DNA of 62,459 bases, filler included, from Stramenopiles sp. TOSAG23-2 (taxonomy: Eukaryota): the NCBI GenBank assembly GCA_900128395.1. It is 20 parts of 20 records of this genome, joined end to end, with 100 filler letters (N's around TTAATTAATTAA, not from the genome) between each part and the next. Parts side by side here need not be neighbours in the genome. Positions count along the whole stretch, not along the records: positions 38,925 to 42,055 come from LT651360.1; 19 more parts are not named here. One strand, written 5' to 3'. Positions 13,351-62,459 of the stretch are shown piece after piece. The position numbers were made by a program, and so were the translations under genes. Position 1 is the first letter of the stretch; every line of letters begins with the position of its first letter. The notes below the pieces were generated by a model. The model made no database searches, was not told the DNA's origin, and saw nothing but the letters and a program-made list of their open reading frames with translations.

Positions 13351-15123
13351 TTATTTCATCTCCACATAACTTATTCGACTACTTCGATGATTATTATTAC
13401 GACTATGAATATCCTCCTCGATGTCGTCATCATGAAATGATAAATATTCATTGTAATCATCATGGTACATGTCTTCTCCACAACATTTTCGAGGGCACCA
13501 TTTGATCCTTTCCTCCACGTTGTTTGGATCAAATTTTTCTTTTTCAATATCAATTTTCCTTGCAATTACAAGAACAAAAAGTATGTAATAGATGATACCT
13601 ATACATAACGAGAATATACCAAATAAAACATATCCATCACCAAGTTTATTACAATATTCATTAACTTCACAATTAACTTTACCACAAAATCTTACTTGTT
13701 TCGTAGTATTACCATCAATTGTTTCTGTAAATATATATTTGCCTTGATACTCTGTATTCAAGGTGCCATCACAAATTCCATTATTATGTTCTTTTGCAAT
13801 TTCTTGAAATGCATTACGAATTGGATTTCGTATACTCATCCAAATTTTACTTCCTAGATTCATGAAAGTCATCAAAACGGTAATAAATGTCCCAGGGCAA
13901 CTAGTTGGTGTTATTCTAGATGCATATGAAATTATTAATATGTACACAACTTTCCGGAAAGGTATTCCTATTAAATTTACTATAGTTCTAAAAGGAAACA
14001 CCCAGGTTTCTTTGCCATTGCCATTTGTTGTCCCGTCCATATAAGGTGGTATTACCATTGTACAAAAATATGAGATCCAGCCAATAATACATATTGGATA
14101 CAATATTTTTAATCTTTTTATTCCATCAACACGTGCACCAATATATTGTGTAATTAGAAATATTGAAATAGCTGTTGGTAAAGCATCAATTATGCCTACT
14201 ATTGCAACATCATCCTTTGTATACCCTAAATTTCGTAAATCTACTTTACTCAGAAGTGCTGCTTCACCCCAAAATAGAGCAGAAGCATAGAATGCAATTG
14301 CTATAAACAATGCATTCTGATTGGTAACAATTCTATACAATTCTTTATATGCTCTTTTTAAATTATTATTATTATTATTACATGTTGTATTATTTGTAAT
14401 GTCATCATCAATTAAAATGTCGCTGTTGTTATTATCGACATCATCATTTTCTTTTGCTTTAAATATTAAACAAGCTGAAATTAAACTTACAATTCCAATT
14501 GCTGTAAAACATGATCTAACACCAATTCTTTGCTCTAAATAAATAAATGCAACCCCACCACCACTACTACCAAAAGTATAACCTAAAGTTTGTATTAAAG
14601 CAAAATAACCAATGTTTTTTCCTTGCAAAGCAAGTACAGCAGATCCATCTAAAGCAACATCTGCAATAGCATTAATCAATATTATCGGAAACAGGTGGGC
14701 AAATAATAACGGTGCGTTTGGACATGAATCATCTGGGTCAATAAATGACCAAGTGAAAGTAAGTACAAAAAATATAACTGCAGAAAGAATGCTAGCTACC
14801 AGCATATAACCTCGACGATGAAATTTGTGACTGAAACAAAATAAAGGTATAAAATCAACTATCGGTGCAATCAATAGTTTGAGTGAAAAAGGCCAAAACA
14901 CATTGTCTAAATACGTTTGAACATAATATTTATCTGCGCATTCATGAACTTCATGTGCCATATATGTACCAAGCACCCCGGGAATTTGTAACAGAACACC
15001 TTGAATTAAATAAAAAAAAGTAAACAATGCAATAACATCTATTTGTTCCCATGGATTTGGAATATTATCTTCTTCCATTATATTTTGATGTTCTTTGGGT
15101 GGGGTATTCTTGTTTTGTTTCAT
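13351..15123 (-). CDS. MFS acetyl-CoA transporter-like protein (SLC33A1/AmpG family)
   Basis: YLIQG, WPFSLKLLIAPIVD, RRGY, DVALDG, GTFITVLMTFMNLG, a Cys-rich late loop and DGY; about 11-12 TM segments. Both ends are duplicated by artefact; start placed at the ATG at 15123. Confidence 0.8.
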   Translation of the reverse strand: MKQNKNTPPKEHQNIMEEDNIPNPWEQIDVIALFTFFYLIQGVLLQIPGVLGTYMAHEVHECADKYYVQTYLDNVFWPFSLKLLIAPIVDFIPLFCFSHKFHRRGYMLVASILSAVIFFVLTFTWSFIDPDDSCPNAPLLFAHLFPIILINAIADVALDGSAVLALQGKNIGYFALIQTLGYTFGSSGGGVAFIYLEQRIGVRSCFTAIGIVSLISACLIFKAKENDDVDNNNSDILIDDDITNNTTCNNNNNNLKRAYKELYRIVTNQNALFIAIAFYASALFWGEAALLSKVDLRNLGYTKDDVAIVGIIDALPTAISIFLITQYIGARVDGIKRLKILYPICIIGWISYFCTMVIPPYMDGTTNGNGKETWVFPFRTIVNLIGIPFRKVVYILIISYASRITPTSCPGTFITVLMTFMNLGSKIWMSIRNPIRNAFQEIAKEHNNGICDGTLNTEYQGKYIFTETIDGNTTKQVRFCGKVNCEVNEYCNKLGDGYVLFGIFSLCIGIIYYILFVLVIARKIDIEKEKFDPNNVEERIKWCPRKCCGEDMYHDDYNEYLSFHDDDIEEDIHSRNNNHRSSRISYVEMK

Positions 15124-16467
15124 TGTATTGCTATATTCTATATATTGCAAAACGTGATGATGTGTTCCCATGGATTTGGAATATTATCTTCTTCCATTAT
15201 ATTTTGATGTTCTTTGGGTGGGGTATTCTTGTTTTGTTTCATTGTATTGCTATATTCTATATATTGCAAAACGTGATGATGTGTTATACAAATAAAAATA
15301 AAGGTGGGTGGGTTCAATAATATGGAGAGATGTGAGATGTATGTGATGTATGTATATTTACTTCTTTTTCTTATCGTTTGCAATAATATATATATATATA
15401 GTACTATATGTATTATCATTCAAAGCTATTATTTATATAAGAAATTAAAATATATATATAAAAAGATATTATTTATTATTTATTTTTTTCAATAGTAAAT
15501 AGAGTTATATTAATATGTTGAACTAGCTATTTACAACTGACCGAGTCGCCACTTTGCCACTTTCTTACAAATTATATTAGACAACCACTAAGTATAATTT
15601 CATGTATACTAAAATTTCTATCAATACCAAATATACGTAGGAAGATTAGTAAATATATGAATACAATAAATTATACTTCATACTTCATATGTACATATTT
15701 AGCCAAAAAGTAAGATTGATTTTAGTAGAAATTTGTTTATTGTGATAATCATTTTTACCTTAATGAATATATTTTTACGAGAAAAATTTCCATCGCAACA
15801 ACAACAAATGTACCGTTGCGTTGGCCAGTTGGAAGCACACATCTATAAAAAATAAAAATGCATTTATATGTACAGACTGTTAGATGTGAAAATACCTAAT
15901 ATGAATTGAATTATATATATATATATGTATGTATATATCCCCTCTCCTATATTCAAGGATAAGGTACAATCGTGTTTTCTAATTATTTTGTAAGGTTACA
16001 TTATAATATATTTTTTGTAAAATGGTGGAGTATGCAACGAAAGGCAAGGGTATTCTCAATAATACGCAACGACCTATGACCTCAATCGACTCTATATCTG
16101 AAGTTATTGATAAGCCAAATTTTTATCCTTCCGCATCTCNNNNNNNNNNNNNNNNNNNNNNNNNNNNNNNNNNNNNNNNNNNNTTAATTAATTAANNNNN
16201 NNNNNNNNNNNNNNNNNNNNNNNNNNNNNNNNNNNNNNNCGTCTATATAAATTATTAATGTTATTGTTATAATGAACTATAATTTCATGATCCATTCTAT
16301 GTATATTGGTATATGTCAAAAACGACATCATTCTATTTCTAATAATTTAAATTGCACATACAATTTATATTCTTATAAATTATTACAGCACACTACTACA
16401 TATCGAAATAGAAAGAAGAAGATAAGCACATATTATATAATAATGCCATGGAATGCCAGGAATGTCT

Positions 16468-16575
16468 CTGGCAATCCTGCTAAGGCCTGCCCAGCCTGGC
16501 AATCCTGGCTGGCTGGCAATCCTGGCAATCTGGCAATCCAGCAATCTGGCAATCCAGCAATCTGGCAATCCAGCA
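16468..16575. repeat. Degenerate tandem array of (CT)GGCAATC / CAGCAATC units upstream of the NEK gene
   Basis: CTGGCAATC occurs seven times, including (CTGGCAATCCAGCAAT)x3, forming a GC-rich patch in AT-rich DNA. Confidence 0.8.
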
Positions 16576-16985
16576 AAATGGTGCAACAAAGAAGAAGAGA
16601 ATTAAGAGTGCTGTGGGAGAGCTGGCTGGGTTGGCCAGGTTGATATTAAGGTATAATACTGAACACCTTAAAACCGCAACATGAACGTTGCTTTTGTCGT
16701 CGCGGTCTGCTGCATCGTAGTCTATGCTCTGCTATGCTCTGCGATGTTACAATAGTAAAAAAAAAATAATAATAACTGTACAATTGTATTACCATACTAA
16801 TTTTCAAACTAGAGTCTATATATATTCATAATAATATCGATATAAATATTAAATACAGTATACATCATATACAACAGAGATTAAAAACAAACAATATTAG
16901 TTATATATAACGATAATAAAGAAAGATTATAAGAGTTGTTAAACTAAAGAAAAAAAAGAAAGAAGAAAATAATAGTACAATAATA

Positions 16986-26093: not shown

Positions 26094-29060
26094 TCAAACT
26101 TCTAATAATTTCGTTCCTTTCAATTTTGTAATAACAGGTTTAAATATTTCATCCATCTTTTTCATCCATATCTTACGTTTACTCACTGAATGAATTTCTT
26201 TTTTCAATTTTTTAATTTCTTTCTTTTTAAATACCCGAAACCATTTTCTCATAACATCCATTGCATCTACTAATTCTACTAAATCTTTCGTTTCCCATGC
26301 ATCCGTTTCACCTTTAACCGTTTGTAATAATGCTGGATCTCGGCGATAAATTTCTGCATCCCATGGTCCAGTAGGTGCATGGTAACCACTACGCTTTGTT
26401 TCATCTACAACTATTCCTTTATCACCACCTTTTGGTTTCACTTCACATCCACCGCAATCTTTTAAATACATCAAATCAATTTTAAATGGATTGCAATCAA
26501 TTTGTGGTTTACCAATATCTGCATTTACCATATTATGTAATTCACAAATCCATGTGGATAATGCTCGACGATTTTCCACACGTGGTGGACCTAATGATGG
26601 TTCGCGTAGCTGTTGTTGCAAATGTTTCCGACATAATTTACAGGGATACAATTGCCCAAATGCAGCAATTAAATTAGTCATTGCTTGCCTATCTTCAGGC
26701 GATGGATGTTCTGGATATTTTGCTGCAAAACTATGTAACACAAACCATGCACGCCGGCCTATAAATTCACGCCATGAACCACCTTTTGAACCATATTCTT
26801 CAAAAAACTTTTTTTCCCGTTTCTTCGTTTCAATCTTTCCATTTTCACCAATATTAATTTCCTTAATAGTATCTCGATCGAATAAATCAAAATCGTTTCC
26901 ATGTGCTTGTACAAACCGTTTTGTCAAATCTTCTCCATGCTTTACATGTATTGGACCACCGGGATGGATAGGTATGAATTCTGTTAAATCATAGGTACGA
27001 TCTTTGACTATAGCATGAATACGCTTTTCTGATGATACGCCAGTGTTGATATCATTTTTTTGTTCCTTAACATGGTTAATATTTGCCGTGGTCGTTAGTA
27101 ATTGCAAATCATCATCAATGGAAAGAATTCGATTATTATTGTTGCTTTTCACCGTTTCCTCTTCCCCGATAAAATGTTCATTTGCATTAGTAATAATTGA
27201 ATTTGCAGCTGCTAAACCAAAGACAACACAATCTAATAAAGAACTACCACCTAAACGATTTTCACCATGTACACCACCCATGATCTCACCTGCTGCATAT
27301 AAATTATTGATTGTTTCGTTCTTTTTATTTAATACGGCACCATTTGGATTTACCATTAATCCACCCATCGTATAATGTAAAACTGGTTCAACGATACCGA
27401 CATAATATGTACCTTTTAATGGTAATTTCGTTGAAACTTTACGATCAATACTCGAAAGGTTGTTCGTCGTGTCTTGAAATGTTTTCTTTAAATTGCTTAA
27501 AATCATCTCATCTTTTCCATCTTCATTCAATCGTTCTTTCACATAGTTTGCTACTCCTTCATATCCTTCAACTGGATTTAATAATCCTTTCCCAGAATAA
27601 ATCTGAATATGCGCATCAATTATTGGCGCTGCATGTGGTGGCACTGCAATAACAAATTTTTCTTGTTTCAATGAATTCATAACATTCACTACTTCTTTCC
27701 GTGTTTTTAATTCGTCAATGAAACGTTTGCCATGTTTTTCAATTAATACAGCACCAGCTCCTCTCACAATTTCTGCACATAATATTAATGATCGATCGGA
27801 TCCTTCATCCATAAAACCTTTTGGTACATCACTAAATCCAGTCGGATGCACTTGTACCATATCTAAATCAATCGTCTCAGCACCAATTGCACGGCCTAAT
27901 TTGATACCATCACCAGTAGCAAATTTGCCATTAGTTGATCCAAGTGTCTGTAATTGTGGCGCAACTTCATTTAATAATGAATGTTCACCTTTATCATTTG
28001 CATAACCACCAGTTGCTAAAATGACAGATGATACTTTAATTCCATATTCTTCATTGTTACTACTACTTAATTTTTGTTGTGTTTGCTCTCGTTTCAACGT
28101 TAATGCCCATCCCAAGTTGTTATTATTTTCATTTTTATCATCATCATCGTTATTTATACATTTTTTATCATCATTTTCATCACAAACATTGGAGGCAAGT
28201 GTGTTGTTGTTATTGTTATCATAGCTACTTGCAAAAATTTCTTCCATGCCTATTAAACGATGCCCTTTTAATACAGTTAGCAATGAATCATCGCCTTTTG
28301 AATATTTCATAACATTGCGTTCTAAACCAGAAATAAATGCAGCACCAGCCAAACGACCACGTGGACGATGTGTCCTTGCTTGACTGTGACCTCCTAACTG
28401 CCCAACATCAGGCAATTCAACATTCGATCTAGATGCAATCCATTCCACTGCTGTTTTTGAATCATCTGCCATTCTACGGACAAGTTTACCAGTAAAGCTA
28501 TTATCCGCACGTTTGGAACTATCCATGGTATCTTTATATAATATATCCGGCTTATCATCAATACCTAAACTTTTTTGCTTCTCTGTCGTACAACCATTTA
28601 TTCCAGAAGAGGCTTTTGCAGAATTACCACCCATAAAAGGTTGCTTCTCAATTAATAATACACGTTTACCTTTTTCTAATAATCGCAAAGAAGCAGTTAA
28701 ACCAGATAAACCGCCACCGATAACAGCTACAACATTTACAATTGGTTTATCTTTTAGCATATTTAAACTTTTTCCTTCACCAACAATTGTTTCTGCTGTT
28801 GTCGTTGTGCTTATTTCATTTAATGCTTGTTCCAACATGATTTTTAGTTTATTTACATCTTTCGTCGATGCTATGTTTTTTACAAGATCAAGTTGAAATT
28901 TAGCAAACTTTTCGTTTCGATCGTTAGATTCTTGCAATGATAATGACGTATTATCACCATCGCAATGTACAAAAGACGTGGTTATAAAACCTACTAATAT
29001 TGTTAATATTAAAAAGTAATATGTGTTATTATTATTATTATTTCTTCCTTTTATTGACAT
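26094..29060 (-). CDS. Fusion: signal peptide + FAD-dependent fumarate reductase (Osm1/flavocytochrome c type) + cytochrome b5 + Erv/ALR sulfhydryl oxidase
   Basis: VIGGGLSG, GGNSAKASSGING, GGHS, ATGG, QVHPTG, EIVRG, DELKTR, HYTMGG, GENRLGGSSL; then YDLTEFIPIHPGG...FVQAH; then GRRAWFVLHSFAAKYP, YPCKLCRKH, WICELHNMVN..IGKP..DC and CGGC. One uninterrupted 988-aa ORF inside one contig. Confidence 0.92.
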   Translation of the reverse strand: MSIKGRNNNNNNTYYFLILTILVGFITTSFVHCDGDNTSLSLQESNDRNEKFAKFQLDLVKNIASTKDVNKLKIMLEQALNEISTTTTAETIVGEGKSLNMLKDKPIVNVVAVIGGGLSGLTASLRLLEKGKRVLLIEKQPFMGGNSAKASSGINGCTTEKQKSLGIDDKPDILYKDTMDSSKRADNSFTGKLVRRMADDSKTAVEWIASRSNVELPDVGQLGGHSQARTHRPRGRLAGAAFISGLERNVMKYSKGDDSLLTVLKGHRLIGMEEIFASSYDNNNNNTLASNVCDENDDKKCINNDDDDKNENNNNLGWALTLKREQTQQKLSSSNNEEYGIKVSSVILATGGYANDKGEHSLLNEVAPQLQTLGSTNGKFATGDGIKLGRAIGAETIDLDMVQVHPTGFSDVPKGFMDEGSDRSLILCAEIVRGAGAVLIEKHGKRFIDELKTRKEVVNVMNSLKQEKFVIAVPPHAAPIIDAHIQIYSGKGLLNPVEGYEGVANYVKERLNEDGKDEMILSNLKKTFQDTTNNLSSIDRKVSTKLPLKGTYYVGIVEPVLHYTMGGLMVNPNGAVLNKKNETINNLYAAGEIMGGVHGENRLGGSSLLDCVVFGLAAANSIITNANEHFIGEEETVKSNNNNRILSIDDDLQLLTTTANINHVKEQKNDINTGVSSEKRIHAIVKDRTYDLTEFIPIHPGGPIHVKHGEDLTKRFVQAHGNDFDLFDRDTIKEINIGENGKIETKKREKKFFEEYGSKGGSWREFIGRRAWFVLHSFAAKYPEHPSPEDRQAMTNLIAAFGQLYPCKLCRKHLQQQLREPSLGPPRVENRRALSTWICELHNMVNADIGKPQIDCNPFKIDLMYLKDCGGCEVKPKGGDKGIVVDETKRSGYHAPTGPWDAEIYRRDPALLQTVKGETDAWETKDLVELVDAMDVMRKWFRVFKKKEIKKLKKEIHSVSKRKIWMKKMDEIFKPVITKLKGTKLLEV

Positions 29061-38463: not shown

Positions 38464-38964
38464 ATTTAAAAAATTCCTCCCAAGTAAACCTGGTAAAATA
38501 TCATTTTTTATAAAAATAAAAAAAAATATACGAGTGTTAGAGTAAAATTTTAAAAAATCGTCTTTTATATTACACTCGTCGTGTCGTCGTAATCGTCGTA
38601 AGAATCGTTTGTGTGTTTAAATTTAAAAAATTCCTCCCAAGTAAACCTGGTAAAATATCATTTTTTATAAAAATAAAAAAAAATATACGAGTGTTAGAGT
38701 AAAATTTTAAAAAATCGTCTTTTATATTACACTCGTCGTGTCGTCGTGATCAATATAAAATTTACACTTCTCACGATTGTATAATATCTAACGATTCTTC
38801 TGGTGCCAATGAAATCATTTTTTGNNNNNNNNNNNNNNNNNNNNNNNNNNNNNNNNNNNNNNNNNNNNTTAATTAATTAANNNNNNNNNNNNNNNNNNNN
38901 NNNNNNNNNNNNNNNNNNNNNNNNAATTGTATCTCTCTATTTATATACATATATTGACACGCAT

Positions 38965-39597: not shown

Positions 39598-40057
39598 GGC
39601 GCATCACTTTTATGGATAATGGACCCGATTAGGTTTATTGACATTATATTATCACCCGTTCTCCCTTCTCTTAACAAGGACAATCAGGACATCCAATTCA
39701 ATGTGTAATACTAAATCGATGTAATTTTACTAATGGCCAACATTTGACGACAAAAACAAAATCTATACAACAATTTAAGCAAGAATTGCAAGACATGAAA
39801 TAACTTGAAAATTAACATTAATAACAATTGTATAATTTTAATGACATAATAAAATGGGGTAGGCAAAGTGTGATGTGTGATGTGAAACATCGCGCACACA
39901 AATTTCGCAAAAGAAAAATATACATACATATTATGAGTAAGAAAAGAAAAGAAAAGAAAAAGAAATGTTATTGATATATAACCAGGAAAAGTAATTATTT
40001 ATCAATCATAACAGAAAAAAATAAAACAAAACTAAAACATACAAGAAAATCGCATCT

Positions 40058-41800
40058 ATGACATCTCTAGTTACGGACAATACAGCTAACAACAACAACA
40101 ACAATAATAATGTTGGGAAATGCAGCTTGACAAAGCCTAGTTGGCCTAGGAGAAAGGGTAATGATAAAGTTTATATTCAGGGGCGTTTAAAAAAAAATCG
40201 TAACTTTAGTCTTGGATCTAATATATTAAATGAATTAACGAATTACAAAGATATGGTAGATTATGTCAATAACTCGATTAATATGGACGTGTCAAAGATT
40301 GAAGATAAAGTGCAAAAGGATGGAGCAAATTTAAATGAGTATTTAGAACAGAATTTAGGTAGCTTGCAAGAGTTAGATATCGGCTCAAATCATCACAAAA
40401 TATACGATCAGGAAAGTCGAATTAGAGAACATTTGTCTGATAAATTTGTGAAAACGTACAATGACCCGAGGTGTCATTACGAAACGTCTTATTATAAGAA
40501 GCAACACCGCGAACCTTTACGTTGTTTTAAACAAAAACAGATAAAACCAAGAAAATGTGCTGAAGATCAGACAGCACATGACGTGGGATATTGCTTGGAA
40601 ATATTTGTGAAAGACTTTATGAACGCTAATGGTTGTCCAGAATGCAAGCTATTCAATTGTTTTGTAGATGGTGGTACCTTACCTTGGGGCGATTGTATTT
40701 GCATGTCGAAAGTTTGCCAAGGAAAAACTTTTATTGAAGCGAAGTCGAAATACAAAGAGAATGATATTAACCAAATTTTAAAGAACAAACAAAAGGAAGC
40801 AGGATCATATATGCAATACGTGAAGCAACATTTAGCTGGAGTTGAAAATCATTACTTGTTTTTGTTGTCAAATAACTTTGAACAATGTGGTGATTCTGTA
40901 TACTTGATGAAGATCAAAGACATTCATCCGTGTATAAATGACAGCTTTTGCGCTGACTTTACACAATCAGGAGGAAAGAGAGGATCGCTTAAGTCGATGG
41001 TTGAATGGGATATAATGAAGTCAATTCCGTTGAATAATTCCTTGCAATCTTATCCTTCAAGAAAAGATTTGCTGGAAGCAATTACTTTTGCAAAGAAGAC
41101 ATGCAATTCAGTTAAAGATATAAATTATGCTGAAAAAGAAACACAATTAGATTTAGAATTCAGGAAAAAAGGGTCTATTGGTATAAAATTTACTCAGTGT
41201 ACGCATACCACTGGTAAAGTCAATTTTACATACGGCACAAGAGGTAACTGTGATGATTCTGAACGTAAGAAAATAGCAATCGGCGATGAAATTGAAATAA
41301 AGGGTAATCGAAATAGAAGACCACTTAAAATTCATGTTCGTCGTACTAGAAGACCACTTAAAATTCATGTTCGTCGTACAGTCCTGGAAAAACGTCAAAG
41401 TGAATTGAAAAAAAAACAACCAGTAAGCAGTAAAAACAATGAAAACAACCGCAGAAATGTAAATGTTACTGAAAATGTGTTGTCTGATTTAGCAAAATTA
41501 TCTATACGTACGACTGGAAGACAACATACAAATAGAAGACCACACCAAGGCACTCGTAACCGCTCTCACCATGGTCGCTCTCACCATGATAGCTCTTATC
41601 ATGATAGCTCTTATGATGACAGCTCTTATCATGACAGCTCTTATGATGATTACTCTCGCTATGAGAATTTGCAAGAACATATTCTTGACAGGTATGAACG
41701 TCGGAACAAATATGTACGAAACCAGGTTAGTTTGAAAAATAGCTCTGGGTACGATGGTCACCAGAGAAGGACAAAAAGAAAAGGAAAAAGAGACTACTAG
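40058..41800 (+). CDS. Orphan protein with a DpnI/DRP-like PD-(D/E)xK nuclease motif pattern and a low-complexity tail
   Basis: LEIFV...CPEC...PWGDCIC..(x4)C...IEAKSK...GSY...HYLFLL; 33-bp in-frame duplication (RRPLKIHVRRT x2); HDSSY 15-bp repeats at about 41566-41660. Confidence 0.6.
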   Translation: MTSLVTDNTANNNNNNNNVGKCSLTKPSWPRRKGNDKVYIQGRLKKNRNFSLGSNILNELTNYKDMVDYVNNSINMDVSKIEDKVQKDGANLNEYLEQNLGSLQELDIGSNHHKIYDQESRIREHLSDKFVKTYNDPRCHYETSYYKKQHREPLRCFKQKQIKPRKCAEDQTAHDVGYCLEIFVKDFMNANGCPECKLFNCFVDGGTLPWGDCICMSKVCQGKTFIEAKSKYKENDINQILKNKQKEAGSYMQYVKQHLAGVENHYLFLLSNNFEQCGDSVYLMKIKDIHPCINDSFCADFTQSGGKRGSLKSMVEWDIMKSIPLNNSLQSYPSRKDLLEAITFAKKTCNSVKDINYAEKETQLDLEFRKKGSIGIKFTQCTHTTGKVNFTYGTRGNCDDSERKKIAIGDEIEIKGNRNRRPLKIHVRRTRRPLKIHVRRTVLEKRQSELKKKQPVSSKNNENNRRNVNVTENVLSDLAKLSIRTTGRQHTNRRPHQGTRNRSHHGRSHHDSSYHDSSYDDSSYHDSSYDDYSRYENLQEHILDRYERRNKYVRNQVSLKNSSGYDGHQRRTKRKGKRDY

Positions 41801-42156
41801 AAACCATGCTAGTTCGAGTATATAAACTACAGATAAGTACAAATATCAGAGAAGATGTTTTAGAAATCTGGTTATTAAACATACCAAATATAAAGCGAGT
41901 ACGGCAATATTGAGCAGGTAATGATCATACGGGTATAAATAAATAACGTTGGTGGTAATAATATTGTCTTGCGTAACTCTCTCTCTCACTCTCTTTCGTT
42001 TTTTTTGTTTTTTTATTCTTTTATTGACAGATTATCAATCATAGCAGAAAGATCGNNNNNNNNNNNNNNNNNNNNNNNNNNNNNNNNNNNNNNNNNNNNT
42101 TAATTAATTAANNNNNNNNNNNNNNNNNNNNNNNNNNNNNNNNNNNNNNNNNNNNC

Positions 42157-45100
42157 ATGACTGTTGAACACCCGACCGATAGTAACACTGCCAACAATGA
42201 CATTTCTGAGAATACTGAAAATGAAGTAGAGGAAGAAAGAATAAAGTGGTCCACTAAAGTAATCAAAAAGGTTCGTAGGCGTACCCTAAATGTTGTAAAA
42301 AAAAGGAAGTGGTCCACTAAAATACAAAAGATTCGCCGGCATACCCTGAATGTCGTATCAAATGGAAGATTGAATACTGAAGTAGAGCTATCGTCTTACA
42401 ATAATGGCGAAATTTGCCGAATGCGTTGGTGGATTTGTGTGAAGCTAGGTATTTACTTATATTACCTTTTATATTATCTCACTATTTTCGGGATTATACT
42501 AGCATTTGCACTAGCATTTATTTATTCATTGATAGAACCTTGGTATTTTGGTTTTAAATATCTTTATGTAACTGTTTCGGGATTTGACGATTATTATGAG
42601 CAAATTCGCGTTGAGTATGTAACGTCATGTATAATTGCATGTGTATCGGTCGTTTTCTCTATATGTCATATTTTGTGTTTTATTATGTATGCATGTTATA
42701 TTCCAGATACGGAAAACCCACCCGTTATTATATCATGTTTATTAACGATCGCTACTGGTATTACTGGCTTAGCATTCGTTACTTACTTCGTTATGGTATT
42801 GTGGCGTTTACCAAGATTATTTTTTTTATCAAGCAATGACTGCAAAAAAAATTATTATTATCATACATATAATAGTGAAAGTGTAGAAAGCACATCATTG
42901 TTCAACTCATACAGAGAATGCCGAAAATGTCCACCGATGACTTTCACCAATAAAAATGGATCATTTTCCTGTAAAGCTATTACAAATTATGTATGCCCTG
43001 ATGGTATGGGGATAGAGTATTTTCCGGTATTAACAAACACCAGTAGCTTTTTAAAACCAGTATGTGTTACATGTAAAATTGGATACTTCAGCAAGAATTC
43101 AACATGTGAGCCTTGTCCACCAGGTCATTCTTCGGCTATTGGATCGAGGTATTGTTACAACTGTGGGCCGGGGCGGTACTCGTACAACAATACGGAGAAA
43201 GTCTTACATTGCCCATTGTGTCCAAAGGGGAAATATTCACTCAATGACGGTAACATTATTTGCAAAGACTGTAGTCGTGGGAAATATACCCTTAAAAGGG
43301 GGCAAATACACGCAGCAGCCTGTATTACATGCAAAAGCAACAAATTCTTTGTTTTGAAAAATACCGAAGACCATGCAAACCAAATTTCCATCGGATTGAA
43401 GCTCGAATGTCAAAATTGTCCTTATGGCCAATATAGCAACGACGAGATTGGTTTTAAATGTAAATCATGCCCCATTGGAAAATTTATGCCGAAAGGTGGA
43501 AGACAAAGCGAAGCGAGTTGCACGCTATGCCCAGCGGGGAAATTTGGACACTCATATTACAATAAAACATTTGGATCATTTTGTTCTGATTGCCCCATAG
43601 CAAAATATACCAATAAAATCGGCAGCTAGCATTGCACTTCGTGTGTGCGATCAAATAGTTTTACAATTGTAGCAGGGGAAAAATCTTGCAAGGAATGCCC
43701 GGTTGGAACATTATCTATTGGTTATAAATGTTGCCTGCCCAGTTTTAGCGCCTCATCATCATTTCAATCAAACGATACCACCTGCTCAAAATTGGAGATA
43801 TTATCACCATTTGGAAATTTCACTACTATTGAAATACCTCATGATAAACAACTGGCGATAGAAACAACACAGTATTGTACGTTGGCATTACTTATCATTG
43901 GGGTTCTTTTTTTCCTATTGTCGTTTTTTTTCAATGGAATGCGGAAAAAGATGAAAGATCCTTTGCAAAAAAAAAACACTTCGAGTAAAAAGACTGACGT
44001 CATACATGCAGATGTTCAGTCACCAAAAGAGATTCATATGGTGCGTATTTTTCATGATTCAAGGAAACCAGATCCCCTAGTAGATCTACTACAAAATGAA
44101 ATTCCAGACAAACAAGACTTAGAAAAGCTAGTAGATTTTGAGAATATCGACACTGCAGTGAAAACAAACATTGTCGTTTTATTTCTAGAAGATAAGATAT
44201 TTATAAGAAACGGAAAAGGAATGTTTGAAGAGACGCACGGTTCAGTTGGTAATCAACTTTCTGATCTTCGGCTAATCATTGGTATTTTTTAAAAAAAATG
44301 GTATCAAGGCGAGACTCACGTTTTAACTTTACGACCTGTGAGATGGATAATCACGTGTTTATATTTTATTGACAGCGACAAGTTAAACCAGGAGGAAGAT
44401 ATTATTGGTAAACAAAATGGGCATCTCCAGGTCAAACTACCATTTACTAAAGTATTGCCTGAAACAAAGGGCATCCTTTCAAATCTAGATATTGGAATTA
44501 GCCGCAGCAAATTATTTGAAACTTATTCAAAAGCAATTATGAATGGTTGTGGGTGGCAAAAACAAGAAATTCACTTGGAAATATTTGCAGGGACAACCAA
44601 GTATGGTTTGAAAGATGCAATTCCTTTTGAATTAGAATCGGGTGATAATTTGACAGAAATTATATCCCTAAATGTCAAATTTAAACATAGAGAACAAGAG
44701 GAAGAGGAACAAAAGAAAGAGGAACAAGAGGAAGAGGAACAAGAGGAAGAGGAACAAGAGGACGAACAGCTTCATTTGTACTTTTTTTGTGATCATTGCG
44801 AAAAGAAAATTGTCGGTAAACGTCATAGCTGCGAATATTGTATGGATTATGATTTGTGTCAAGATTGTTATAATAATCCATTGATATTACAAAAGGCACA
44901 TTTAAATTCACATCCAACTCATACATTTGATACAATTGATGGGGAAATTGCACTGGTGAATGATGATGAGGCTGAATTTGATTATGATGGCCGAAAATCC
45001 TCCGGAAAAAGTTCTAACATATATCGTCGTGGTGATTGTGTAGAAGCAAAAGTAAAAGGTTGGACAAAATATTACGGTGGTGAAATTATACGTGTAAACG

Positions 45101-45494: not shown

Positions 45495-46711
45495 ATGGGA
45501 TTGAACACATATTCATTTATATTATTAGTTCACTTCTCCGCCCTGTTTCATGTTACTTTATCACTTGAAACAGTTAGATGGCATTCACAACATTTACAAG
45601 ATCAATTTGTTATGTCAAAAATATTTAACAATAAAACAAATGGATACTTTATAGAATTGGGTGCCGCAGATGGGTTGTTAATGTCCAATACAATCTCCTT
45701 GGAAAAATATTTCAATTGGAATGGGATATGTATTGAACCTAGTAGCGTGTACAAAAAGCTTGTATTAAGTAATAGAACGTGTGTTAAACGTGGGGATTTA
45801 ATTGGGTATCCATCAGGAGATGTAGTAGAATTTATTGAGCAATTATCGGACGGCGAGAATGAAATTGCTAAAAATAACGATTTTAATTATGTAAACCAAG
45901 GTACAATAATTCGAAAATATTAAAAGTGGTTCGTACATTAAGTGATATATTGGATGAATCAAATGCGCCAAATTATGTAGATTTTCTATCATTAGATACA
46001 GAAGGTTCTGAATTTGAAATACTTGAACATTTTCCTTTTTCAAATCGCAAATTTGGAGCAATGGCCATAGAGCATAATTATAATAATTCACGACGTACTG
46101 CAATAAAAAATTTACTGGAGAAAAACGGATATGTCTGGATCAACTGTGTAAATACAGATGACATTTATGTGAATGTAAAATTGATGTTAAAACAGAACGA
46201 TATTAAAGTCGATACAAGGATGTGTATGGGCACATTGATCGAATATACATGCGATCCAAATGACATAGCAAATGTTTGTACAGGTATAGAGCAAGAGGAA
46301 CTATCGTTTGTTGAAAACGACAAAGAAATAATTAATGGATTATTAAAAGATATAAAAGATTCAGGATACACAATTCCACAAGTATGTAATATGTTAAAAG
46401 CACATTGTCAGCAAATTACAAAAACACAAAAACATGATGTCATGATACCATTAATAATGTCTAGTGGACCTAAAATAGAAGTAGAAGTTGGTGATAGCTA
46501 TCGTGAATCTACTGTAATTCAATTTTCATCTCCAGATACAATTGAGGAGGCCAAACAATTTGTCAAAGACTTACAATTAAATGAGAGAGATGGTGACAGC
46601 TTTGTGGCAAGTGCAGTGGAAATCGTTCGTAATTACATAGATAAAGAGACGAAAGAGAATATTGAAAAAGTTCTTCTTTTAAGTGCGACAGCAGCAGGGC
46701 AGGCAAAATAA
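45495..46711 (+). CDS. FkbM-family methyltransferase with signal peptide/anchor, frameshifted near 45890-45925
   Basis: SQHLQD..V, GYFIELGAADG...SNT..LE...NWNGICIEP in the first ORF; TLSDILD..NAP..VDFLSLDTEGSE..IL..F...IEHN in the second ORF, in a different frame. Confidence 0.8.
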
Positions 46712-46948: not shown

Positions 46949-48217
46949 CTACAAAGTAATTTTTGGTTTTGTAATTAAATCTACCCAATATATTTCAAAA
47001 ACAAATCTTAGTTCCAATTTTTGATCAATGAAATAATGATCATAAGCAAATTTCTTCTCTCTTTTACGAAGCAATGATAATTGATCATGCTCCGCATTAG
47101 AATAATCAAAATCTACACCGTCGTATCCAATATCTTTTGCATCGGAGTGTCTAATTAAATCACATTCATATTCATAGTGATCATGCAGTGCCCGATAAAA
47201 AATCTCTGTTACTTTCTCGTCAATTATATTCAATTCCGTTTCATCACATTTAATTTTACGAATGGCACTTCTACCACGTACATAATTTTTAACACGATCT
47301 AACGATACACCTACATCATATCGTACTTCTGGCATTTCCATGGAAGATATTACATTTAATGGATTAAATTTATTATTATTTTCAAAAGCGGACTTCCATG
47401 TTCCATATTTTATTGCCAAGTCTGATTGTGAATAATATGGCGATATAATATCTTCAATCTCTTGTATCCATGGTATGGTTGTATCAAGCCTACGCCATAT
47501 TAAACCCAGCCTACCACCTTGTACTAGTACACGAGATATTTCATTTAATGATTTTTCATTTGCAAACTTATGAAATTCATTACATACAATTACACTTTTT
47601 ACACAACCATTCCGTAAGGGTATTTTCGATGATGAGCCCCTTGTTACAGGGCATTCAGGCGTCCTATTGGAGAATTCCACTCTATTTTCGAGTACTGGAT
47701 CACACGCAATCATGTTAATAGAATCATCTCGTTTAAATATTTGTTGTGCAAGTAAACCTGGGCCACAATGTAAATCCAATATGTCGAAATCATACAATAC
47801 ATTTGTATCTAATACGTTATGGTAATGTACAGTTTGTAACAAAGAATTAATTGCTGTTTTCGAAAATGGCTTGTTGACAAAAAAGTATTCTACCAATTTA
47901 CTAGTAACAGGAAATTTTCTCCTTCNNNNNNNNNNNNNNNNNNNNNNNNNNNNNNNNNNNNNNNNNNNNAGCCAACCTGAGCTACTTCGTTCATTTTTTT
48001 TTTCATCATTTAATGTTTTAAAGAAATTTAAATTTGGATTCATCAGTTTTTTATTTACATATATTTCATTTGGATCTTCATCATCTACTTTTAATTTCTC
48101 ATCAATAGCGATATTGAATTTTTCTTCATTTTCAGTACTAAATCTTCGATTGAAAACCTTCAATTTTCGAGCTATGTTGGTCCAACCATACTTTGTCTTT
48201 TTTACAATCTTGTACAT
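46949..48217 (-). CDS. Class I SAM-dependent methyltransferase (Methyltransf_11-like), possibly mitochondrial
   Basis: ILDLHCGPG, IACDP, GSSSKIPL, FHKF, EISRVLVQGGRLGLIW; basic N-terminus. Internal N gap 47926-47969. Confidence 0.75.
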   Translation of the reverse strand: MYKIVKKTKYGWTNIARKLKVFNRRFSTENEEKFNIAIDEKLKVDDEDPNEIYVNKKLMNPNLNFFKTLNDEKKNERSSSGWXXXXXXXXXXXXXXXXRRKFPVTSKLVEYFFVNKPFSKTAINSLLQTVHYHNVLDTNVLYDFDILDLHCGPGLLAQQIFKRDDSINMIACDPVLENRVEFSNRTPECPVTRGSSSKIPLRNGCVKSVIVCNEFHKFANEKSLNEISRVLVQGGRLGLIWRRLDTTIPWIQEIEDIISPYYSQSDLAIKYGTWKSAFENNNKFNPLNVISSMEMPEVRYDVGVSLDRVKNYVRGRSAIRKIKCDETELNIIDEKVTEIFYRALHDHYEYECDLIRHSDAKDIGYDGVDFDYSNAEHDQLSLLRKREKKFAYDHYFIDQKLELRFVFEIYWVDLITKPKITL

Positions 48218-49136
48218 ATTTAAAATATCGCAAAACAAATTAAAAAATCTATACTACTACTATACAATGAAATGTTAATACATACATATATATATATATA
48301 TACTACAAGTTGTATTGCTTGTTTCATTATACAACAACTATTTTATTTGTATTATATTGACATATTCGATCGAATGCCTGAATGATCAAATAAAAATTAA
48401 TAATAATTTTTGATGAGATTTTTTTAAAGCACCTTAATGGATTTAATGGGTTTAAGGCATTCTCGAAAGACGACTTTTTTAACCTTCAAATTTATTACAA
48501 NNNNNNNNNNNNNNNNNNNNNNNNNNNNNNNNNNNNNNNNNNNNTTAATTAATTAANNNNNNNNNNNNNNNNNNNNNNNNNNNNNNNNNNNNNNNNNNNN
48601 TAAGCATAATTTTATACATTTTAATGCTGTGTCCATGTAGTTGTGCCTATCGGTGCTGCCGTCCTCTCTTCTCCTTGATGTCCATTAAAAATGAATAAAA
48701 ATAAGTTGAAATATATGAAATATAGGTCCTAGCTAGGAAGCTCTAGCTAGTCTTGGTAGTAGAGAAGAGCAGCAAAAAGATAAAGAGGAAGAAGAAATAT
48801 AAAATAAATTACTATTGTGGGATACACATTGAGATAATTTATATGGACACACAATGGGAATTTTAGGTACTTATACTTACATGACATAGCACTATCTTTG
48901 TCTTTGTGAGCAGGAGAGTCTTAATACTACTACAAAAATATTATTATATTTTATTTCAATTATATATAGTTTTAATTATTATAAGATATAGATTATCGAC
49001 AACAACAAGAACAGTAGATATAAACTTACAACCAATACAATCATATTAAAGACATAACATACGTTCGTTTTTCTATTTATATTTTTTTTTTTCAAAAACA
49101 ATACGAGTATATATATATAATATATATATTGCTAAC

Positions 49137-61457: not shown

Positions 61458-62459
61458 TATGAAACCCACAAAAAGTTCCAATTTTAAAGCTGCTGTTGAA
61501 TCGTGTGTTTATAAATGCTATAGAAGGTTTAAAGGTTTCGTCTGTTGCATGTTTATACGTCATTATGTGATGACCTCTGATACCTATATTCTCAGCAATA
61601 TAGGATTCGCGGATACTAACAATTGCACGGTACTCCAAATATAACCCCCCTCCCCCGCGGGCCGCGGAGTTTTGTTCTTCCTGTTTATTACCTGTCACAA
61701 TTCCACGAGTCATTGCAAGCGAAGCGCCTCTGAGGTAGAGACCTCCTCCATAACTTTCTGCTACATTGCTTTCGAAGCGTACGTCCGTCATTTCAGAGGT
61801 TGTACCTGAGTAGAGGGCAATGCCACCACCATATACTGTACAAATTGAATTGGTAATATTTGTTTTTTGAAGAATTACAGTAGCACTGCCCGAATACGCC
61901 ATAATACTGCCACCGTATTTGGCTCTGTTGCCAGTAAACAAACAATTCCAAGCAACAAGCTTACTGTTATCTCCAGTCACAAACACAGAACCTCCCATGC
62001 AACCAGAATAATCAGGTTCAAACTCTTCACCACTAGTTCCCCGCCGCTCTCGACTTTAAACAAACGGTTCGACCCTCCACCGATGATTTTTGGCAAATTT
62101 CCTTCAGCGTCTGGGATGCCTGTGACGTTTAACTTGCCCGTGACGACGATTTGGAAGTAGAGAATGCAGTCGCTGGTGATGGTGGCGCTGCCGCTGGTAG
62201 GGATGGGGCATTGGGGTTTACATTCGACGCCTTCCTTGGGGTTGGGTTTGTCAACGCATCCATAGTACGGGGCGTACCCGTTGTCAGCGCACTGGTTCGG
62301 GGCGGCGGTGCAGCTTTTTGGTGTTGCATATCCACTAACAGTTTTTGTGTTTACAAGATTAAACACAGCATTAATGAGAAAAACGGCAATAGATGGTTCT
62401 GTACCCCAACTCATAACAACGTCACCATCAGTGGAGGCTTTGTTATCAATAAATTTGCT
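61458..62459 (-). pseudogene. Pectin-lyase-like / polymorphic-membrane-protein beta-helix repeat protein, partial and frameshifted
   Basis: FxxNxA..GG(G/S) repeats (FTGNRAKYGGSI, FESNVAESYGGGL), a Cys-rich linker and RLFKVESGGELVVKSLNL. Frame change near 61990-62010; open at both ends. Confidence 0.65.

Follow-up and report, generated by a model that had tools for sequence, protein, structure and literature searches.

The window analysed here, a stretch of 62,459 nucleotides (nt) joined from parts of 20 records of Stramenopiles sp. TOSAG23-2 (GCA_900128395.1), holds on the part taken from LT651360.1 a gene whose product resembles, in its central region, the catalytic domain of the restriction endonuclease DpnI. 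This is probably an intact gene of a marine eukaryote with AT-rich and gene-dense DNA, and its central part probably belongs to a divergent branch of the DpnI/Dam-replacing catalytic-domain lineage; cutting at methylated adenine is favoured, tentatively, as its activity, and exchange between giant viruses and protists most likely lies in its history. GC content is 35.1% for the gene and 31.7% for the window overall. An earlier note on this DNA had described a eukaryote-style gene with a DpnI-like domain in which four Cys are interleaved with a PD-(D/E)xK site, and that description holds: some relatives of the protein score above the Pfam cut-off for the DpnI family (PF06044), and a profile that includes the window protein leads to a DpnI structure (4esj). 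The features on which the argument depends are the following, with amino acids (aa) numbered along the window protein and A4 denoting an alignment of 15 rows.

40058 to 41800, plus strand: complete coding sequence, 580 aa from ATG to TAG, with uninterrupted translation and no intron seen.
40409 to 41047, plus strand: region homologous to giant-virus proteins of ~280 aa, aa 118-330, made up of N-terminal helices and the nuclease core (phmmer, A4).
40583 to 41032, plus strand: DpnI-like PD-(D/E)XK core with predicted four-Cys site, aa 176-325 (profile against 4esj, AF2 model, re-alignment with 4kyw_A).
40598 to 40600, plus strand: E181, putative equivalent of the DpnI helix glutamate E25 (profile alignment, in which chain residue E28 is native E25, an offset of 3; model helix 157-172).
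40634 to 40645, plus strand: C193-P-E-C196, first Cys pair of the putative Zn site (profile alignment, A4).
40691 to 40693, plus strand: D212, putative equivalent of DpnI D53, with P209 pairing with P50 (profile alignment; model strand 194-196).
40700 to 40717, plus strand: C215 and C220, second Cys pair, C-x4-C, with an extra C213 (alignments).
40736 to 40744, plus strand: E227-A-K229, predicted active-site ExK, matching E64-L-K66 of DpnI (profile alignment; model strand 205-212).

In DpnI the residues E25, D53, E64 and K66 are described as the active site (PMC3424567), and the zinc site as four Cys, of which one pair lies between E25 and D53 and the other in a hairpin that comes after D53 and before the ExK motif (PMC3424567, PMC4117772). 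Comparison of a profile of A2, a trimmed alignment of seven sequences with the window protein first, against 177,635 PDB sequences returned eight rows at E<=10, of which DpnI (4esj) was the best at E 0.0033 and the next stood at 0.92. The alignment with 4esj, whose chain numbering is native DpnI numbering plus 3, pairs E181 with E25, CPEC with CPNC, P209 and D212 with P50 and D53, the second Cys pair with its DpnI counterpart, E227-x-K229 with E64-x-K66 and GSY with GAY; these are the same anchors that the earlier note had given for DpnI. The catalytic E (on a helix), D and ExK thus occur in DpnI order in the window protein, with C193 and C196 before D212 and with C215 and C220 between D212 and E227, and a Zn site is predicted. 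The C-x4-C form of the second pair and the extra C213 recur in the orthologue P0002, introduced below. Each of E181, C193, C196, D212, C215, C220, E227 and K229 is kept in at least 90% of the rows of A4, the exception being a fragment (P0017) that is without that part. A script placed all of the motifs within 40580-40870: LEIFV at aa 180-184 (nt 40595-40609), CPEC at 193-196, PWGDCIC at 209-215, C220, IEAKSK at 226-231, GSY at 249-251 and HYLFLL at 265-270 (nt 40850-40867). The motif string of the earlier note was right in its order and in the spacings x8, x4 and x5, but three other spacings were each one residue too short and should read CPEC-x12-PWGDCIC, IEAKSK-x17-GSY and GSY-x13-HYLFLL.

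The resemblance of the window domain to its relatives is, at the level of sequence, beyond chance, because an exhaustive phmmer search with aa 131-360 against 1.84 billion representatives gives six proteins at E<=0.001 (none at E<=1e-10). These are P0003 (278 aa; the best, E 9.2e-10), P0004 (285 aa; E 1.2e-8), P0005 (283 aa), P0008 (270 aa), P0006 (652 aa, its DpnI-like domain preceded by two KH domains) and P0007, a fragment of 73 aa. A profile search adds eight more, P0010-P0016 (274-290 aa) and P0017 (a 117-aa fragment), and nine of the ten proteins returned by that search bear a precomputed PF06044 label. Against the PF06044 gathering threshold of 26.7 bits, P0003 reaches 29.5 bits, P0008 29.2 bits and an open reading frame (ORF) on the viral record G001 26.9 bits, and four of the seven members of A2 match PF06044 at E<=1. 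Homology of the window domain to DpnI, as judged from these alignments, is well supported but distant.

Several results weigh against this assignment. The relatives that pass the PF06044 cut-off exceed it by only 0.2-3 bits, P0004 (25.5 bits) and P0005 (17.3 bits) fall below it and P0006 has no match; moreover, neither the whole window protein nor its aa 170-320 gives a PF06044 row even at E<=10, and the same is true of the orthologue P0002. Single-sequence searches with the window protein returned no significant match in Pfam, NCBIfam or the PDB. A profile of ten viral-type sequences alone (A5) had no PDB match at E<=1, and DpnI was likewise missed in the PDB by P0008 alone and by the untrimmed profile A1, which was swamped by the long KH-fusion protein in the PDB and homology searches alike.

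A structure predicted from a single sequence with AlphaFold (aa 131-360) had a predicted local distance difference test score (pLDDT) of 40 and was unusable. The AF2 model of aa 20-450 with A4 as its alignment has a mean pLDDT of 61.9, with values of mostly 70-92 for model residues 100-335; within the core (model 157-306) they are mostly 77-92, dipping to 61 at model 181-190 and to 68 at model 281-290. In this model E162 (aa 181) lies on helix 157-172, D193 (aa 212) at strand 194-196 and E208 and K210 (aa 227 and 229) in the next strand, 205-212, with pLDDT 79-91 in the blocks that hold the key residues. The modelled placement of these residues is the canonical PD-(D/E)XK arrangement; the question raised by the earlier note of whether D, E and K cluster is answered at the level of secondary structure only. 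Beyond the core the model consists of one long helix (aa ~335-353), which packs against the N-terminal helix, and then of low-confidence chain.

Comparison of the model with known structures gives a less clear ranking. A VIA re-alignment of 998 Foldseek candidates placed DpnI first (4kyw_A, Z 7.1, root-mean-square deviation (rmsd) 3.5, 131 residues aligned at 16% identity, model 152-306 against chain 15-158), followed by the SPARDA nuclease at Z 7.0, DpnI chain 4esj_B at 6.9 and Hjc at 6.2, with cap-snatching endonucleases and YTH domains near 6. However, a Z of 7.1 is middling (below 8) and lies within one unit of SPARDA, Hjc and others. Also counting against a special likeness to DpnI, the lead rows of the unbiased VIA search match the long helix pair, and DpnI (4esj_A) ranks 41 at Z 5.6 (rmsd 5.0, 139 aligned), between NhoI at 5.7 and RecU at 5.5 and behind Hjc at 6.1. 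A Foldseek search of the PDB gave nothing at E<=0.001; YTH domains lead its list (E from 5.8e-3), and DpnI occupies ranks 47-48 at E 0.06. SPARDA, Hjc, NhoI, SwaI and the cap-snatching nucleases in the VIA lists are proteins that we take to share the PD-(D/E)XK fold. Taken together, the fold comparisons fit a PD-(D/E)XK nuclease that has DpnI as its closest match, and are not decisive alone. As regards a match to the family of DpnI and the Dam-replacing protein, the PDB profile and the first rank in re-alignment speak for it, whereas a Pfam row of the protein's own and a Foldseek match at the threshold above are missing.

It might be argued that the likeness to DpnI is convergent or a matter of chance, and that the core is instead a zinc-ribbon domain, rich in Cys and with a different fold, for example a PUA/YTH-like reader, with no nuclease activity. 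The 30-odd YTH rows that head the Foldseek list (E 0.006-0.04), the ASCH and YTH rows that reach Z 5-6 in VIA, the failure of the window protein to match Pfam directly and that of the viral-only profile to reach DpnI would all fit such a view. Nevertheless, this is very improbable: the YTH alignments have rmsd values of 6.6-17 Å and TM scores of 0.3-0.4, an independent hidden Markov model alignment places the E, D, ExK and all four Cys in the same columns as those of DpnI, these residues are kept in viral and eukaryotic members, and several relatives pass the curated cut-off of Pfam. A YTH/PUA reading of the core was therefore rejected, on those alignment values and on the column-for-column agreement with DpnI.

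The closest relative of the window protein is P0002, a protein of 499 aa from a eukaryote proteome collection (E 2.9e-73), which was the sole protein to emerge among 182 candidates of a word-indexed search with aa 130-360. The two proteins are 48% identical over 446 aa and have in common the N-terminus MxSLVTD (MTSLVTD in the window protein, MASLVTD in P0002), the nuclease region and a C-terminal module. P0002 is also encoded, with one residue different, on a metagenome contig of 1784 nt (L004), and a metagenome scan brought up nothing besides that contig. No second copy of the nuclease gene was found within the window. The fragment P0007 shares 55-61% identity with aa ~284-361 of the window protein but is scrambled in places; it could be either a paralogue in decay or the copy of a related organism.

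Next to the orthologue, the nearest relatives are giant-virus PF06044 proteins of ~280 aa (P0003, P0010-P0016; loci L001 and L002), with 27-33% identity over the domain. Mapped by tblastn, the viral proteins fall on 40310-41038. They share with the window protein the N-terminal helices (aa ~118-175, which form helices and short strands common to both in A4), the GG loop, GSY and Q and H positions; unlike it, they are short and stand-alone, have CxxC and end in a conserved F..YA.KIQ..YKK motif, in place of which the window protein has other C-terminal modules. P0003 is encoded, at 98% identity, on a 67.8-kb viral contig (L001), where the 14.6 kb around the gene hold topoisomerase II, patatin, a trypsin-like protease, TBP, a Pox_A22-type resolvase, a histone-chaperone-like protein and asparagine synthase. 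A 62%-identical copy (L002) lies on the 83.6-kb viral record G001 (CheckV completeness 26%), with patatin, M16 peptidase, dUTPase, ankyrin, PLD, DAGAT and RabGAP-TBC as neighbours. Both loci are dense, with an ORF cover of 0.86-0.88 and a median gap of ~37 nt, and from their gene content they are read as giant viruses. No capsid gene was found in the viral fragments, the capsid model having matched nothing anywhere, control genomes included; in the G001 fragment there is no match to PF02086, PF01555 or PF04451, nor was a Dam-type or N6/N4 methyltransferase found there, and P0008 as query led to no viral locus. At 14912-16732 (plus strand) of L002 there is a weak Terminase_6N match (24.2 bits, cut-off 22), which puts the class of this virus in doubt. 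Two weaker leads point to viruses as well: an Atlas feature search scored 0.93 against clusters that hold Nucleocytoviricota members and restriction-enzyme families, and the best BFVD rows are E5ESH8 (E 3.6e-4) and then a Megaviridae environmental protein (E 1.5e-3).

Most likely, then, the gene has been exchanged between giant viruses and protists, in either direction. The earlier proposal that it was virally acquired is plausible in that its nearest relatives sit on giant-virus-like contigs, but the direction is not settled by the tree. Only the pair of window protein and orthologue is resolved in that tree of 14 rows (support 99/97; P0017 was dropped as too short); it is unrooted, its branches are long and it has no outgroup, which is why it gives no direction.

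The same relatives raise the possibility that the gene was carried in as a passenger by a giant-virus insertion, or that the contig itself is viral, and that the nuclease serves the virus. Its viral neighbours in sequence space, the Atlas clusters and the Megaviridae row in BFVD are in keeping with this, as is the GC content at third codon positions of the gene (0.306), which is among the higher values in the window. The window also contains Erv1/Alr, FkbM methyltransferase, ankyrin and K+ channels, all common in giant viruses, and some doubt about a cellular origin remains because of them. However, such a passenger is improbable for three reasons. First, among 29 other window ORFs, parts of the window being masked by N runs, no capsid, packaging ATPase, polymerase or primase family was seen in Pfam, and of 57 ORFs (>=80 aa) of the two viral loci only two match the window, namely the DpnI-like ones. 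Second, gene density is far below that of the viral loci (ORF cover 0.63, median gap 390 nt, eight gaps above 1 kb), and the relative synonymous codon usage of the nuclease gene, with r 0.79 against the other window ORFs, falls inside the window range of 0.70-0.94. Third, the eukaryote-type architecture shared with a 48%-identical orthologue argues for long residence. Pfam families were recognised in 20 of the 29 ORFs scanned, all of cellular type, among them two-pore/EF-hand ion channels, PH and TPR proteins, an acetyl-CoA transporter, a protein kinase, GH28, propionyl-CoA carboxylase beta, glutathione S-transferase, the 2'-5' RNA ligase family, the NAD-dependent epimerase/dehydratase family and an ephrin-receptor-like Cys-rich membrane protein. 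The window is very probably a cellular eukaryotic locus.

Part of the stretch is present in 20 of 24 listed sequencing runs (13 studies), seven being RNA libraries; two small DNA runs may be its source. Contigs were compared from three metatranscriptomes, each of a different study (X4, X6 and X11, the last two from poly-A-selected libraries), as well as from the metagenome X5. Among the RNA contigs, the longer ones that overlie the ORF match it at >=99% and differ by one letter at most; together they delimit the following span.

39980 to 41957, plus strand: span of RNA-library contigs, a putative transcript with short untranslated regions and approximate ends.

The ends are given by X11 record 1, which starts at 39980, and by X11 record 6 and X4 record 10, which end at 41957 and 41947. 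Over 39700-39979 there are no RNA contigs, while the DNA run X5 is present; the RNA end there is set by one run and is no evidence. None of the contigs has an intron-like joint, the sole joint being one that skips 33 nt (41313 to 41347), which is one copy of a repeat. As support for a transcribed eukaryotic gene these data have two weaknesses: contigs from RNA libraries are not proof of transcription, and giant-virus transcripts can also be polyadenylated.

With regard to function, the catalytic and four-Cys constellation, kept in viral and eukaryotic members at ~30% identity, argues for a working metal-dependent nuclease. In the proposed mechanism E181 would sit on the upstream helix, D212 and E227-x-K229 would form the metal-binding active site, and C193, C196, C215 and C220 would be interleaved with it as in the structural Zn site of DpnI. 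We infer an active Mg2+-dependent DNA endonuclease, with DNA as the likely substrate and zinc in a structural role by analogy with the family. Cleavage of adenine-methylated DNA, as by DpnI and the Neisseria Drg product, is quite possible and is put forward tentatively; GATC as the target site is less likely than that. The catalytic domain of DpnI is reported to be specific for Gm6ATC on its own, both methyl groups lying in a cleft of L129, R135 and W138, with Asn48, Arg126 and Arg135 as target-reading residues and Gly140 as a further part of the methyl cleft (PMC4117772). Since that domain is methyl-specific by itself, the missing winged helix does not exclude methyl-dependence in the window protein.

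Three observations limit the case for methyl-directed cleavage. The winged-helix domain was not detected, with no Pfam family beyond aa 282 at E<=10, in agreement with the earlier note, which had not found it evident either (no Pfam match for the whole protein or aa 170-320). DpnI Asn48, which contacts the guanine of a G:C pair, pairs with T207, beside the invariant GG of the family; Asn48 not being conserved, the target need not be GATC. The methyl-cleft loop of DpnI (L129, R135, W138) lies outside the alignable stretch, and of the reading residues only Asn48 is within it. This raises the possibility that the protein is an active nuclease of the DpnI lineage that has lost methyl-dependence and serves another purpose: repair or recombination, the cutting of junctions or flaps, unspecific breakdown of the DNA of prey or host, or cleavage of RNA or single-stranded DNA. 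The missing reader and the loss of Asn48 would fit such an enzyme. Among the structural matches, Hjc resolvases, SPARDA and cap-snatching RNA endonucleases rank level with DpnI, the eukaryotic proteins carry additional modules that are not known from restriction enzymes, and P0006 fuses the domain to two KH domains, which usually bind RNA or single-stranded DNA. Nevertheless, a loss of methyl-dependence is somewhat doubtful, given that the characterised members known to us are methyl-directed, as described for DpnI (PMC3424567, PMC4117772) and Neisseria Drg (PMC4269198), that the DpnI catalytic domain is reported to read methylation without the winged helix (PMC4117772) and that no repair-type partner domain was found.

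If methyl-directed cleavage is nonetheless retained, the cell would attack foreign DNA marked with N6-methyladenine (6mA), that of giant viruses and bacterial prey, while sparing its own, and viruses would turn their copy on 6mA-marked host chromatin or on competing viruses. Some protists mark their own chromatin with 6mA. The complete scenario, in which a free-living marine protist has, and seemingly transcribes, a restriction-type endonuclease that is directed against adenine-methylated DNA and shared with giant viruses as an arms-race weapon, must at present be regarded as unlikely.

Among known systems the closest is R.DpnI of Streptococcus pneumoniae (Type IIM; 4esj, 4kyw; PF06044), which has the same helix Glu, P..D, ExK and two interleaved Cys pairs in the same order and is both the best PDB profile match and the best VIA re-alignment of the window protein. 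Unlike R.DpnI, the window protein is without a C-terminal winged helix, has C-x4-C in place of CxxC and Thr at the position of Asn48, has ~115 extra N-terminal and ~250 extra C-terminal residues, is encoded by a eukaryotic gene and lies below Pfam detection. To our knowledge, the characterised PF06044 members are bacterial enzymes that cut Dam-methylated DNA. The product of the Neisseria Dam-replacing gene (Drg/DRP), the namesake of PF06044, shares its Pfam family with the viral relatives; it comes from a bacterium, is likened here by description only and is reported as a GmeATC-specific endonuclease (PMC4269198). Hjc resolvases, the SPARDA nuclease domain, NhoI, SwaI and the cap-snatching endonucleases have the core fold in common (Z 5-7, fold only), and none of them is among the PDB profile rows of A2. 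The Type IV enzymes with winged-helix fusions and HHPV4I, described as 6mA sensors, follow the same theme of adenine-methyl restriction, one of them being virus-encoded (PMC11037411, PMC10101028), but depend on a winged-helix sensor that was not found in the window protein.

A literature search of full texts gave no description of the PF06044 family in giant viruses or protists. The 2012 survey of PD-(D/E)XK proteins gives, in its entry for PF06044, the range 'Bacteria', patchy, with small bracketed counts in other columns (PMC3424549). Adenine methylation is described as used by many giant viruses in a methylome paper which, in the passages at hand, uses DpnI only as a reagent (PMC7253447), and a review of eukaryotic adenine methylation, in its relevant passages, mentions only methyltransferases of the DpnII system (PMC4738411). 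What is new here is a DpnI-lineage catalytic domain without the reader domain, inside a larger protein in a protist and short and stand-alone in giant viruses.

The remainder of the gene has four features outside the region common to the viral proteins.

40088 to 40111, plus strand: poly-Asn run, aa 11-18, with an AAC repeat at 40088-40104.
41120 to 41407, plus strand: C-terminal module, aa 355-450, conserved with the orthologue P0002 only (alignment with P0002; pLDDT <50).
41314 to 41379, plus strand: perfect in-frame tandem duplication of 33 nt, RRPLKIHVRRT twice, aa 420-441 (repeat scan).
41408 to 41797, plus strand: basic His/Ser/Tyr-rich low-complexity tail, aa 451-580, with 15-nt repeats at 41562-41649.

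The poly-Asn run and the low-complexity stretches had been remarked on before and are present, the latter in the C-terminal tail, which is missing from the orthologue. No Pfam match was found for aa 355-450 and no Atlas lead for aa 352-446. A likeness of SIGIKF...IAIGDEIEI to PDZ domains is not claimed, as Pfam and Atlas gave nothing and pLDDT is below 50; a SAND-domain row (1h5p, E 0.48, aa 374-451) was dropped, the orthologue being without matching residues, and a Tom37 row at 18 bits was dropped as under the Pfam cut-off. A form with one copy of the 33-nt repeat occurs in contigs of the RNA runs X4 and X11 and in the 212-aa fragment P0009, and short contigs of X5 and X6 span the junction of the copies with only 30-33 letters on each side; the one-copy form may be a genuine allele, with an in-frame difference in length, or an artefact of short-read assembly in which the repeat has collapsed. 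Read-through of the TAG at the end of the gene would add only 11 codons.

Some further observations concern the relatives and the surroundings of the gene. P0006, a GC-richer relative on a contig of 2971 nt, has two KH domains fused to its DpnI-like domain, which hints at a nuclease aimed by an RNA- or single-stranded DNA-binding module in some lineages. Pairs of 44-nt N runs recur about every 3240 nt through the window (for example 38825-38924 and 42056-42155) and look like masking rather than assembly gaps; none lies inside the nuclease gene. Within 42157-44292 (plus strand) an in-frame TAG at 43627-43629 splits a coherent gene: past it the Cys-rich ephrin-receptor-like repeats run on, and after them come a hydrophobic, transmembrane-like stretch and a tail, making 221 further codons up to a TAA. 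This TAG could be a sequencing error, the mark of a pseudogene, or a case of TAG read-through or reassignment; the stops of 30 long ORFs are TAA in 24, TAG in four and TGA in two. An ORF of 987 aa at 26094-29060 (minus strand) joins FAD-binding (fumarate-reductase-type), cytochrome b5 and Erv1/Alr sulfhydryl oxidase domains in what looks an unusual fusion, and an ORF at 61458-61998 (minus strand) has repeats of Chlamydia polymorphic membrane proteins (E 1e-8) amid a eukaryote-like contig. An FkbM-family gene (45926-46711, plus strand) and a class-I S-adenosylmethionine-dependent methyltransferase gene (46949-48238, minus strand) lie 4-6 kb downstream of the nuclease gene, with no sign of a DNA target.

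If the activity is not methyl-dependent, the finding is that of a horizontally shared nuclease and of modest interest. If it is, the protein might be a new 6mA-dependent enzyme with another target site, of use as a reagent, and a eukaryote would have modification-dependent restriction as a form of innate immunity. With protists and giant viruses both in possession of a conserved DpnI-type nuclease, their conflict would offer a concrete, assayable candidate for eukaryotic methyl-directed restriction.

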